DNA of 64,000 nt, from assembly GCA_040387855.1 (NCBI GenBank), contig JAZKCY010000001.1, forward strand, positions 846,922-910,921, read 5' to 3'. Every line of letters begins with the position of its first letter. Within the stretch, counting starts at the first letter, position 1. The notes beneath the pieces were generated by a model that saw only the letters and a program-made list of their open reading frames with translations, did no database searches and had not been told where the DNA came from. A program made the position numbers and the translations under genes. The stretch is from Patescibacteria group bacterium (GTDB lineage: Bacteria; Patescibacteriota; Minisyncoccia; Phycocordibacterales; JAKAEA01). Of the stretch, positions 23,326 through 23,548 are shown piece by piece.

Positions 23326-23548
23326 CATCAATTCCTTTAACACTGATGGACTCTATCTTCATCTCTTCACTTTCGGAAAAGAGATGTGCGGCGTTGGTCT
23401 CTTAATAACCGCATATTGACTACACTCTCTATTGCTAGAGAGCAAGGTAGCTTTAGATGTAATAATTTAACTGTATTTACTCAAAAATTCCTTATAACAG
23501 TCCCAGTCGTTCAGGACTCTTCTTGCGAAAAGTCCTAAACCTTAGGAC
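23326..23548 (-). other. Intervening sequence 2 in 23S rRNA (about 223 nt, ORF-less), a putative small group I intron at E. coli position about 1917-1923
   Basis: The exon sequence CGGCCGTAACTATAACGGTCCTAAGGT | AGCGAAATTCCTTGTCAGGTAAGTTCTGAC is interrupted by 223 nt. The upstream exon ends in T and the insert ends in G. Confidence 0.6.

Follow-up and report, generated by a model that had tools for sequence, protein, structure and literature searches.

A 213-nt insert in the 23S rRNA gene of a Patescibacteria group bacterium lies at site L1931, and we think it rather likely that it is a miniaturised descendant of the classical group I intron of that site, one that would be removed by guanosine-dependent splicing, possibly with help. 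Comparison with its homologues shows, at the level of sequence, a widespread, diversified and strongly constrained family that has dropped the P4–P6 domain together with the U·G wobble and kept J8/7, the guanosine site and a G as last base. To our knowledge, P4–P6 and the U·G at the 5′ splice site enter into the definition of every natural group I subgroup. We found no report of a natural group I intron without P4–P6 in the literature searched, with most subscription papers outside the reach of that search.

The host 23S rRNA gene occupies positions 25564..22033 of the window (the whole 64-kb stretch of DNA analysed here) on the minus strand. It is 3532 nt long including two introns, as delimited by a full-length Rfam LSU_rRNA_bacteria match (2298.5 bits) and by blastn against E. 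coli 23S rRNA. The insert spans 23326–23538 on the minus strand; subtracting an intron position from 23539 gives its window coordinate. Its flanks are ...CGGUCCUAAGGU upstream and AGCGAAAUUCC... downstream, and the junctions read ...AAGGU / UUAGG...UGAUG / AGCG, with U as the last base of the 5′ exon and G as the last base of the intron (ωG). An earlier sequence-only reading of this DNA had recognised the 23S rRNA gene as interrupted by extra sequence, which the Rfam LSU match, blastn and the exon junctions confirm. It had also named both of these final bases, as seen at the junctions, and had counted two insertions in a single 23S gene, the other of which we place at L2593. Its lower boundary of 23326 stands; the upper one, 23548, is 10 too high by the exon junctions, and the length of 223 nt given there measures 213 nt.

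In a blastn alignment to an E. coli rrl copy of 2903 nt, the junction falls after residue 1930 and before 1931. Where the landmarks Ψ1911/1915/1917 and m5U1939 lie, compared with the 2904-nt reference, indicates that this copy presumably runs one below standard numbering. The insertion site is therefore U1931/A1932, i.e. L1931, and not position ~1917–1923 as first proposed. The 213-nt insert has a minimum free energy (MFE) of −61.7 kcal/mol, well below that of shuffled versions (z = −5.2). L1931 is a recognised insertion site in CPR bacteria (PMC11270868) and hosts introns of Simkania, Thermotoga and Synechococcus, with endonucleases of 143–167 aa already known from it (PMC1995217). The insert itself holds no ORF for a LAGLIDADG homing endonuclease, the longest overlapping ORF being 50 aa. 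Its predicted elements, the exon segments that they face and the second intron of the gene are as follows, in transcript order.

23539..23552, minus strand: 5′ exon target AACGGUCCUAAGGU, exon positions −14 to −1, including the 3′ strand of helix 69
23511..23538, minus strand: 5′ hairpin, intron 1–28, 12 bp with a GCAA loop, beginning exactly at the splice site
23505..23509, minus strand: P2 5′ strand ('a'), CGACU, intron 30–34, partner of 'M' at intron 118–122
23496..23504, minus strand: upstream guide ('b') GGGACUGUU, intron 35–43, 9 bp with exon AACGGUCCU
23452..23495, minus strand: linker ('X'), intron 44–87, A/U-rich, with conserved AUAG and UAAAYA-like motifs, mostly unstructured
23444..23451, minus strand: internal guide GCUACCUU, intron 88–95, GCU with AGC of the 3′ exon as P10 and ACCUU with AAGGU of the 5′ exon as P1
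23424..23443, minus strand: P2.1 hairpin, intron 96–115, 8 bp with a GCAA tetraloop
23417..23421, minus strand: P2 3′ strand ('M'), AGUCA, intron 118–122, paired with 'a'
23387..23413, minus strand: P3 (intron 126–131 with 147–152) and its interior, namely a UAUUAA linker, the P7 5′ strand GAGAC (138–142) and CAAC
23360..23386, minus strand: P8 hairpin with covarying outer pairs, intron 153–179, its loop containing GAAA
23348..23359, minus strand: J8/7 AAGAUAGA (intron 180–187) and the P7 3′ strand GUCC (188–191), matching the group I 'S' consensus
23326..23347, minus strand: P9, intron 192–195 with 209–212, its loop carrying the guide AAGGAAU (202–208), then the terminal G213
23313..23325, minus strand: 3′ exon target AGCGAAAUUCCUU, the partner of intron 88–90 at +1 to +3 and of intron 202–208 at +7 to +13
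22324..22662, minus strand: L2593 intron of the same gene, 339 nt, with canonical P4–P6 (Rfam Intron_gpI 51.8 bits; blastn gap at E. coli 2593/2594)

Two collection scans returned 45 distinct homologues of 187–262 nt, all at L1931, with a median pairwise identity of 62%. Every host with a taxon name belongs to the CPR/Patescibacteria, and by these sequences the RNA family is so far found only in CPR/Patescibacteria 23S rRNA genes. The family profile retrieves the insert with an nhmmer E of 1.5e-32. Rfam Intron_gpI matches it at 28.6 bits (E = 2e-5 with 501 nt searched), below the gathering score of 50, in an alignment that spans P8, J8/7 and P7. The mini forms in L060, L073 and L085 give no Intron_gpI match at gathering, a score that L054, a full form, reaches with 50.7 bits. 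Besides LSU and Intron_gpI, a permissive cmscan of the region (E ≤ 10) gave chance-level weak matches only. Over the whole structure, 79.8% of cells are paired compared with 63.2% in shuffled data (0/500 shuffles reach the observed value; these statistics ignore shared ancestry), and the covariation score of the 45 sequences is 0.497 against 0.07–0.135 with the partners slid. Per the covariation and pairing counts across the family, the predicted structure is under selection.

A group I core comprising P3–P7 with a plausible G-binding site can be modelled, as had been supposed at the outset, together with P8, the J8/7 consensus and the terminal G. P3 is 97% paired with compensatory change at 6/6 pairs, and P9 is 96% paired with compensatory change at 4/4. 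In the P7 5′ strand GAGAC, A139 is bulged next to the G138–C191 pair, an arrangement that we take to fit the guanosine-site pattern of Tetrahymena. The pairs G140–C190, A141–U189 and C142–G188 are invariant in the 45 sequences, as are A137, G138, A139, G140, C142, C143 and A144 on the 5′ side of P7 and A180, A181, G182, A183, A185, G188, U189, C190 and C191 in J8/7 and the 3′ side of P7. Thus conserved (45/45 in each case), the bulged A and the G–C pair of P7 look like a guanosine-binding site. Rfam aligns AUGAAGAUAGAGUCC in the J8/7 region to the group I consensus, and G213, which ends the intron as U-1 ends the 5′ exon, is also invariant in 45/45. The distal P7 positions C143·A187 and A144·G186 are not paired as drawn in 43/45 sequences.

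The P4–P6 domain (P4, P5, P6, J4/5, J3/4 and J6/7) is absent from this core, with only the 6 nt UAUUAA between the P3 and P7 5′ strands. Full forms at the same site have 60–75 nt extra at this place, where L054, L212 and L121 carry canonical P4–P6, and guide and R element lie 40–44 nt apart in every mini versus at least 100 nt in full forms. These longer relatives have the 5′ domain in common with the minis and insert canonical P4–P6 precisely between the P3 5′ strand and CAGAGACC. The linker X was considered as a relocated P4–P6 and ruled out: its length across the family is 22–75 nt, it is A/U-rich and mostly unfolded (MFE 0 in many members), and it is also found in relatives with a real P4–P6. 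The initial assignment to a group I insertion at a homing site holds as far as group I derivation and the classical site L1931 are concerned, and fails for a canonical group I intron.

Upstream of the core, covariation supports an elaborate 5′ domain. All 11 aligned pairs of the 5′ hairpin stem have changed on both sides among the 45 homologues, and the first nucleotide of the intron covaries with the one that closes the hairpin at its 3′ end (U-A, G-C, A-U, C-G). P2 is paired in 95.6% of cells with compensatory GC/UA (34 vs 8) and CG/UA (41 vs 3) exchanges. An alternative pairing of 'a' with S, proposed by RNAalifold, is compatible with the alignment and shows no compensatory change; a–M was kept as P2 because it has two compensatory positions. 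P2.1 is 86% paired, with compensatory change at all 8 pairs. Its loop, L2.1, is GUAA together with CC:GG in P8 in 32/32 sequences, and other loops accompany other pairs in 7/13 (Fisher p = 3.8e-5; ancestry ignored), which suggests that the P2.1 GNRA loop probably docks on P8.

Exon recognition had been expected to rest on one internal guide paired with CCUAAGGU. Three intron segments (35–43, 88–95 and 202–208) pair with the exons instead, and two of them, b and the P9 loop guide (L9), covary with host rRNA variants. On the 5′ exon, intron 35–43 is the partner of positions −14 to −6, and intron 91–95 that of −5 to −1. Guide b matches each of four host exon haplotypes and is 97.3% paired, and the L9 guide AAGGAAU is 93.7% paired with the 3′ exon variants (0/10000 shuffles reach either value; ancestry ignored). 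In both guides several positions change on the intron and exon sides alike. Another reading, in which GGGACU of segment b would be the 5′ strand of P7 or else the partner of S AGUCC, was discarded, since b covaries with variant helix-69 exons.

The internal guide 88–95 is the exact complement of the ligated junction AAGGU/AGC. Its G88, U90, A91, C92 and C93 are invariant in 45/45, and GCUACCU sits in an otherwise variable linker. P10, formed by GCU (88–90) and AGC (+1 to +3), is drawn in all members, a GUU variant pairing via G·U; with the exon invariant, this is evidence of conservation only. The splice-site U-1 faces A91, itself invariant in 45/45, in a U–A pair where a U·G wobble would be canonical. 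Intron 91–95, ACCUU, is the sole conserved complement of the exon end, and a P1 formed by extension of the 5′ hairpin (U-1 with intron nt 29) was dropped, as nt 29 varies among A, C and U while the distant A91 does not. The P4–P6-containing forms L054, L121, L142, L129, L043 and L049 have G opposite U-1. An A at this position in every mini and a G in P4–P6 forms is as expected if the J4/5 receptor and the wobble were lost together.

The relation to known introns is closest for the classical L1931 introns of Simkania negevensis, Thermotoga spp. and Synechococcus spp. (family A), which share the site U1931/A1932 with the insert. The family A guide GCUAGCCUUAG is related to GCUACCUU of the insert, and both have, in the same order, P3, the R element (CAGAGACU in family A, CAGAGACC here), P8, the S element (AAGAUAUAGUCC and AAGAUAGAGUCC, respectively), P9 and the terminal G. 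Family A introns measure 250–330 nt, or 620–750 nt if they include a LAGLIDADG gene, whereas the insert is ORF-less at 213 nt. In family A, P4–P6 is complete, the splice site has its U·G wobble, P7 is 5 bp long and one guide of 7 nt serves the exons; the insert lacks P4–P6, has U–A at the splice site and adds the 5′ hairpin, P2, P2.1 and two extra exon guides. The Synechococcus L1931 introns that have been published are without the P2 that the insert has (PMC1995217).

In the reading that we propose, the insert descends from a classical L1931 group I intron. Comparison shows that it keeps P3, P7 with its putative G site, P8, J8/7, P9 and the terminal G, and that it has lost the whole of P4–P6, in whose place stand ~6 nt, along with the U·G wobble. 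It has an elaborated 5′ domain of a splice-site hairpin, then P2, then P2.1 with its GNRA loop. The pairings across the family show the exons held by three guides, with 35–43 on the 3′ strand of helix 69, 88–95 across the junction and the P9 loop on +7 to +13. Excision from the 23S precursor would follow the ordinary two-step transesterification initiated by guanosine, with the G site and J8/7 contacts supplied by the retained P3–P9 half, and the long exon guides and P1–P2.1–P8 scaffold would replace the docking that normally comes from J4/5 of P4–P6. Splicing of this kind may proceed slowly, or may depend on a host factor, on polyamines or on Mg2+. A bolder version, which we advance tentatively, is that the insert is a natural self-sufficient group I ribozyme without P4–P6, in which U–A stands in for U·G and the tripartite guide (~24 nt of exon) and the P2.1–P8 contact replace J4/5 docking; the long guide would then let an ORF-less intron spread or persist in the rRNA genes of CPR bacteria by reverse splicing and not by endonuclease homing.

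Ribozymes of this minimal kind are so far known only as laboratory deletions. In the engineered 'minimal catalytic domain' derived from the Tetrahymena and T4 td introns (Ikawa, Shiraishi & Inoue 2000, Nat Struct Biol 7:1032), the P3–P7(–P9) half is kept, as in the insert, and P4–P6 is removed. Residual activity has been demonstrated for such ribozymes, and a T4 td ribozyme from which the P4–P6 helices are missing is reported to react at 0.10 per hour, ~1000-fold below the full-length form (PMC2879505, citing its reference 18). The insert family differs in being natural and diversified and in having exon guides and a 5′ scaffold, and it is known here from sequence. We assume that reference 18 of PMC2879505 is the Ikawa et al. 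2000 study.

Against the favoured reading, three features usually held essential are missing or reduced, namely P4–P6, complete pairing of P7 and the U·G wobble. Since the engineered P4–P6-less ribozyme is ~1000-fold slower, unaided splicing may be too slow in vivo. These considerations lead to the rival reading that survives best, although we regard it as unlikely: a degenerate group I intron without self-catalysis, whose RNA would only present the splice sites, through its exon guides and folded scaffold, while a host protein or another RNA supplied what is missing, for instance a maturase-like factor or a P4–P6-like RNA acting in trans. The loss of P4–P6 and the wobble and the two mispaired P7 positions in 43/45 sequences all suit this reading, as does the rate of the engineered ribozymes, and conserved exon guides would be needed there as well. 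A parallel is found in the small, ORF-less degenerate group I introns of lichen-fungal nuclear rDNA, which are missing sequences for catalysis and are nonetheless removed in vivo, yeast lacking the machinery to remove them (PMC8527467). Those introns, however, are eukaryotic, nuclear and dependent on host machinery, and have lost catalytic sequences in general, whereas the insert family keeps the G site, J8/7 and terminal G and loses only P4–P6 and the wobble. An invariant G-site pair, bulged A, J8/7 and terminal G are predicted by a working core and are not obviously needed in a passive substrate. The intron codes for no protein, and an nhmmer search of the 64-kb window with a profile of 28 L1931-type P4–P6 segments found no free-standing P4–P6-type RNA at E ≤ 10, a weak negative confined to sequence similarity. 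CPR genomes are small with few ribosome-biogenesis factors (PMC12641178).

We give less credence still to the idea that the insert is unspliced, whether it stays in the mature 23S rRNA and expands the helix 69–71 junction, or is cut out by nucleases with no ligation, so that the 23S rRNA ends up in fragments. For Simkania, the intron at L1931 is reported to remain unspliced (Everett 1999), and retention at L1931 may therefore be tolerated. Fragmentation of bacterial 23S rRNA via RNase III-processed intervening sequences (IVS) is likewise known (PMC11270868), but in the same CPR survey the sites of IVS-type inserts are 23IS2 and 23IS4 and do not include 1931. In both the MFE and consensus structures, the ends of the insert are not paired into the long stem typical of an RNase III IVS. 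Guide 88–95 complements the joined exons on both sides, which is only sensible if they are ligated, and an invariant terminal G and G site would have no role in a retained expansion. The site moreover adjoins helix 69, which is part of an intersubunit bridge.

An assembly artefact or chance resemblance, with no biological unit behind it, deserves almost no weight: the assembly is of metagenome type and one Logan contig with the neighbouring genes stops before the rRNA, but 45 distinct homologues at the identical rRNA position in independent assemblies and collections, together with extensive covariation and a folding z of −5.2, effectively refute this reading from the sequence side. The neighbouring genes are present in sequencing run SRR26324620. 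An archaeal-type bulge-helix-bulge motif (both splice sites in 3-nt bulges, with a 4-bp helix between them) could not be drawn, by inspection, in the structure that covariation supports; P1 and the 5′ hairpin meet at the 5′ splice site, and the 3′ splice site follows the 4-bp P9 and an unpaired G.

Guanosine-dependent splicing of a miniaturised L1931 intron, our favoured reading, would have several implications. If these RNAs still splice, nature provides in them a test of how far the group I core can be dispensed with. They would then also show what can compensate for the loss, namely the P2.1–P8 scaffold and the extended guides for the exons, and a size of ~190–210 nt would be attractive for structural work and engineering. 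The mini introns would also show how far a CPR 23S rRNA gene sequence can depart from the mature rRNA. A survey of CPR 23S insertions called only 45% of them group I (PMC11270868); the mini form is missed by annotation at the Rfam threshold, and such forms may account for part of the unclassified insertions.

Other matches to the R/S pattern came up in the metagenome scan. Those inspected have long coding-like sequence upstream of the core and mostly lie at other nearby LSU sites, on which grounds they were rejected as mini forms.

Bacterial 23S introns in the neighbourhood of helices 69–71 are also known from Coxiella burnetii, whose L1917 and L1951 introns occur as two in a single gene, like those of the gene studied here. 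They occupy sites other than L1931 and are reported as group I introns that splice themselves; one of the two is reported to be without the canonical terminal G, a departure from a 'universal' group I feature (Raghavan 2007). The L2593 intron, an example of the compact canonical group I introns of ~200–340 nt, is ORF-less and of similar size range to the insert in the same gene, but it keeps P4, P5 and P6 and passes the Rfam threshold.

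The 23S rRNA gene of the window carries two insertions, as the sequence-only reading had held; intron position n of the L1931 insert corresponds to window position 23539 − n.

Features of the rRNA locus
25564..22033, minus strand: 23S rRNA gene, 3532 nt, bacterial
23538 down to 23326, minus strand: L1931 insert, 213 nt
22662..22324, minus strand: second 23S intron, 339 nt, E. coli L2593
21735..21628: 5S rRNA gene, 3' of the 23S gene

Three approaches, namely alignment to Rfam LSU, string matching and a blastn comparison with E. coli 23S rRNA, agree on the limits of the L1931 insert, and the insert splits a conserved stretch reading ...CGGCCGUAACUAUAACGGUCCUAAGGU before and AGCGAAAUUCCUUGUCAGG... 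after it (RNA sense). The upper coordinate of 23548 and the length of 223 nt proposed earlier are thus each 10 too high. A blastn alignment puts the junction between residues 1930 and 1931 in a 2903-nt E. coli rrl copy. We take Ψ1911/1915/1917 and m5U1939 to number one too low in this copy relative to the standard 2904-nt reference, so that the standard site is U1931/A1932 (L1931) and the earlier placement at ~1917–1923 was wrong. The exon-terminal U and insert-terminal G were read correctly, and the insert is ORF-less as described, with no overlapping ORF above 50 aa. The exons share 82–85% identity with 23S genes from MAGs of Paceibacterota, Minisyncoccia and relatives, which identifies the source as a CPR bacterium. 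No 16S rRNA or tRNA genes were found in the 64-kb window; the 23S and 5S genes are set apart from any 16S, with ordinary protein genes upstream of the 23S.

The second intron (...GACCGU / intron ...AUAUG / CGUGAGACAG) lies at the I-CreI-type site. It scores 51.8 bits in Rfam, the match at 22332–22549 spanning part of the intron only. It encodes no endonuclease and has a canonical P4–P6, placing a canonical and a reduced intron adjacent in one host gene. Published work (PMC11270868) already records L1931 among CPR (Patescibacteria) insertion sites and describes CPR 23S genes with more than one intron, and in that respect the earlier observation is ordinary.

One genome per GTDB species was scanned for copies of the 5' exon with a base other than A after it, giving at least 120 loci. 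Among the matches listed, L1931-site inserts form two families. Family A (at least 77 loci, many phyla) begins with the guide GCUAGCCUUAG, has a full core and appears to be the classical L1931 intron, described in Simkania, Thermotoga and Synechococcus (PMC1995217). Family B (at least 26 loci) differs in its 5' domain and includes the window's insert. Among the matches listed, family-B loci with a taxon name are nearly all CPR/Patescibacteria, and named hosts of its short form, the mini, are all CPR. Further family-B members came from a metagenome scan with the family-B core pattern, followed by profile search and de-duplication; with L183 and L212 set aside from 47 distinct sequences, 45 distinct minis were retained (187–262 nt, median pairwise identity 62%). 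The window's insert shares no more than 74% identity with any of the others.

The secondary structure was tested on a sequence-only MAFFT alignment of these 45 minis.

Structural elements of the insert, with support from the alignment
Intron 1–28: 5' hairpin, two-sided changes at every aligned pair
Intron 30–34 / 118–122: P2, 95.6% paired, two compensatory positions
Intron 96–115: P2.1 with GNRA loop, compensatory pairs 8/8
Intron 126–131 / 147–152: P3, 97% paired, compensatory 6/6
Intron 153–179: P8, covarying outer pairs
GAGAC 138–142 with GUCC 188–191: P7
Intron 192–195 / 209–212: P9, 96% paired, compensatory 4/4

Across the whole structure, 79.8% of cells are standard pairs versus 63.2% when shuffled (0/500 shuffles reach the observed value), and the covariation score is 0.497 versus 0.07–0.135 with partners slid 1–3 columns. 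The folding energy of the insert is −61.7 kcal/mol (z = −5.2 against shuffles). Intron nucleotide 1 covaries with the last nucleotide of the 5' hairpin (U-A, G-C, A-U, C-G), and the hairpin therefore begins exactly at the splice site. A group I core can be drawn, with a covariation-supported P3, invariant P7 pairs (G140–C190, A141–U189, C142–G188) and a putative guanosine site, where G138–C191 and bulged A139 reproduce the pattern around that of Tetrahymena. The adjoining positions C143·A187 and A144·G186 do not pair in 43 of the 45 minis; they do in L014 and L127. The P7 strands, J8/7 (AAGAUAGA) and terminal G213 are invariant. An L2.1 loop of GUAA accompanies P8 CC:GG in 32/32 minis and other loops accompany other pairs in 7/13, the window's insert having GCAA with CU:AG; we read this association (Fisher p = 3.8e-5, without phylogenetic correction) as a probable tetraloop–receptor contact.

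What the minis lack is P4–P6. Only ~6 nt (UAUUAA in the window's insert, UAACGA typically) separate the 5' strands of P3 and P7, and at that exact spot longer family-B members, namely L054 (278 nt), L121 (296 nt), L212 (252 nt), L142 and L129, carry a textbook P4–P6, UAUAUGCUGGAAA...AAUCAGCAGGAAAG...CCCU. At 50.7 bits, L054 attains the Rfam gathering score; the window's insert scores 28.6 bits, and minis in L060, L073 and L085 are unmatched at gathering score. A profile of 28 L1931-type P4–P6 segments had no match elsewhere in the 64-kb window. The linker from upstream to internal guide measures 22–75 nt, is A/U-rich and mostly predicted unstructured, and also occurs in forms possessing P4–P6; on these grounds it was rejected as a substitute domain. 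This linker (intron 44-87, window 23452-23495) has a conserved AUAG at its start and UAAAYA midway. L006, which has A91, is intermediate: where P4–P6 would lie it carries a longer segment without the P4 motif. The L1931 intron of L218 (Ga0114951_10145564) has a long ORF-like upstream sequence and combines a P6-like AAUCCC ahead of GAGAGACC with a mini-type S element (J8/7 and P7 3' strand), AGAUAGAGUCC; it may be another intermediate between full and mini forms. Several P4–P6-bearing family-B introns (L054:5906-6183, L121:5150-5445, L212, L142, L129, L130, L193, L236) have a final A, not G, right before AGCG, as in ...GGAAACGAAA/AGCGAAAUU, at a boundary that cannot be shifted. They recall a Coxiella intron that reportedly lacks the canonical terminal G.

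A guide–exon pairing of the kind that the sequence-only reading proposed to look for can be drawn at intron 88–95 (GCUACCUU), an exact complement of the ligated junction AAGGU/AGC, with GCU available for P10 and ACCUU for P1. It is one of three guides, two more having surfaced from hosts with differing rRNA. G88, U90, A91, C92 and C93 are invariant despite a flanking variable linker and covarying hairpin. The splice-site U faces A91 in 45/45 minis, and the usual wobble G in the P4–P6-bearing L054, L121, L142, L129, L043 and L049.

Further guides and the exon variants they match
Intron 35–43, exon −14 to −6 (helix-69 3' strand): exon AACGGUCCU, intron RGGACUGUU
Same guide: exon variant AACGAUCCU, intron AGGAUUGUU
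Same guide: exon variant AAUCGUCCU, intron GGGACG(G/A)UU
Same guide: exon variant AAUCGUUCU, intron RGAACGAUU
P9 loop, exon +7 to +13: exon AUUCCUU, intron AGGAAU
P9 loop: exon AUACCUU, intron AGGUAU
P9 loop: exon GUACCUU, intron GGUAC
P9 loop: exon UUUCCUU, intron AGGAAA

The upstream guide is 97.3% paired with the exon and the P9 loop 93.7%, and 0/10000 permutations of host assignment reach the observed pairing for either. In total, ~24 nt of exon are recognised.

The shared 5' domain, guide, R element (P7 5' strand) and S element link the minis with L1931 introns of full length. Loss of P4–P6 travels with G to A opposite U-1 and with an S-element change from AUAUGGUCC or AUAUAGUCC to AUAGAGUCC. 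Since J4/5 of P4–P6 is what recognises the wobble pair, joint loss of the domain and the U·G wobble is coherent. The simplest history has P4–P6 being lost in a CPR lineage and the shortened introns diversifying afterwards.

The putative guanosine site, J8/7 and terminal G, still invariant in the minis, are parts needed for transesterification, and a junction-spanning guide would make sense only with exon ligation. Together these favour continued group I-type splicing, which the minis probably still undergo, perhaps slowly or with assistance. We presume the measurement cited below as reference 18 to be that of Ikawa et al. 2000. According to PMC2879505, which cites its reference 18, a T4 td ribozyme without P4–P6 helices is left with ~0.1% of full-length activity. 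A rather unlikely alternative is that autocatalysis has been lost and a host factor removes the insert, for which the degenerate group I introns of lichens (PMC8527467) offer a model. Retention of the insert in the 23S rRNA, or fragmentation of the rRNA, is more doubtful still; its precedent is the Simkania L1931 intron, reportedly unspliced. That the insert is an artefact is scarcely credible. Within the literature searched, whose coverage was partial, we found no natural group I lineage described as lacking P4–P6 and the U·G wobble, and no account of a three-part, host-covarying exon guide like that of the minis. If their splicing is confirmed, the minis would be of real interest to ribozyme specialists.

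Other insertions neighbour some minis: L203:3560-3640 and L127:1100-1170 carry another one 12–21 nt downstream, in L203 after ...CCUUGUCAGGUAA and in L127 after ...AAUUCCU, the latter starting AGAAGACUGGGACC and resembling the family-B motif of P2 5' strand and upstream guide. In the window's own 23S gene, ~90 extra nt relative to E. coli lie in domain I (window 25056-25300, 23S residues ~265-509), between blastn-aligned blocks and distinct from both introns. Elsewhere in the window, a 988-aa ORF (31655-34621, minus strand) joins right-handed beta-helix/NosD-like repeats to a lecithin:cholesterol acyltransferase (LCAT)-like domain (PF02450), an unusual pairing for a small CPR-type genome.
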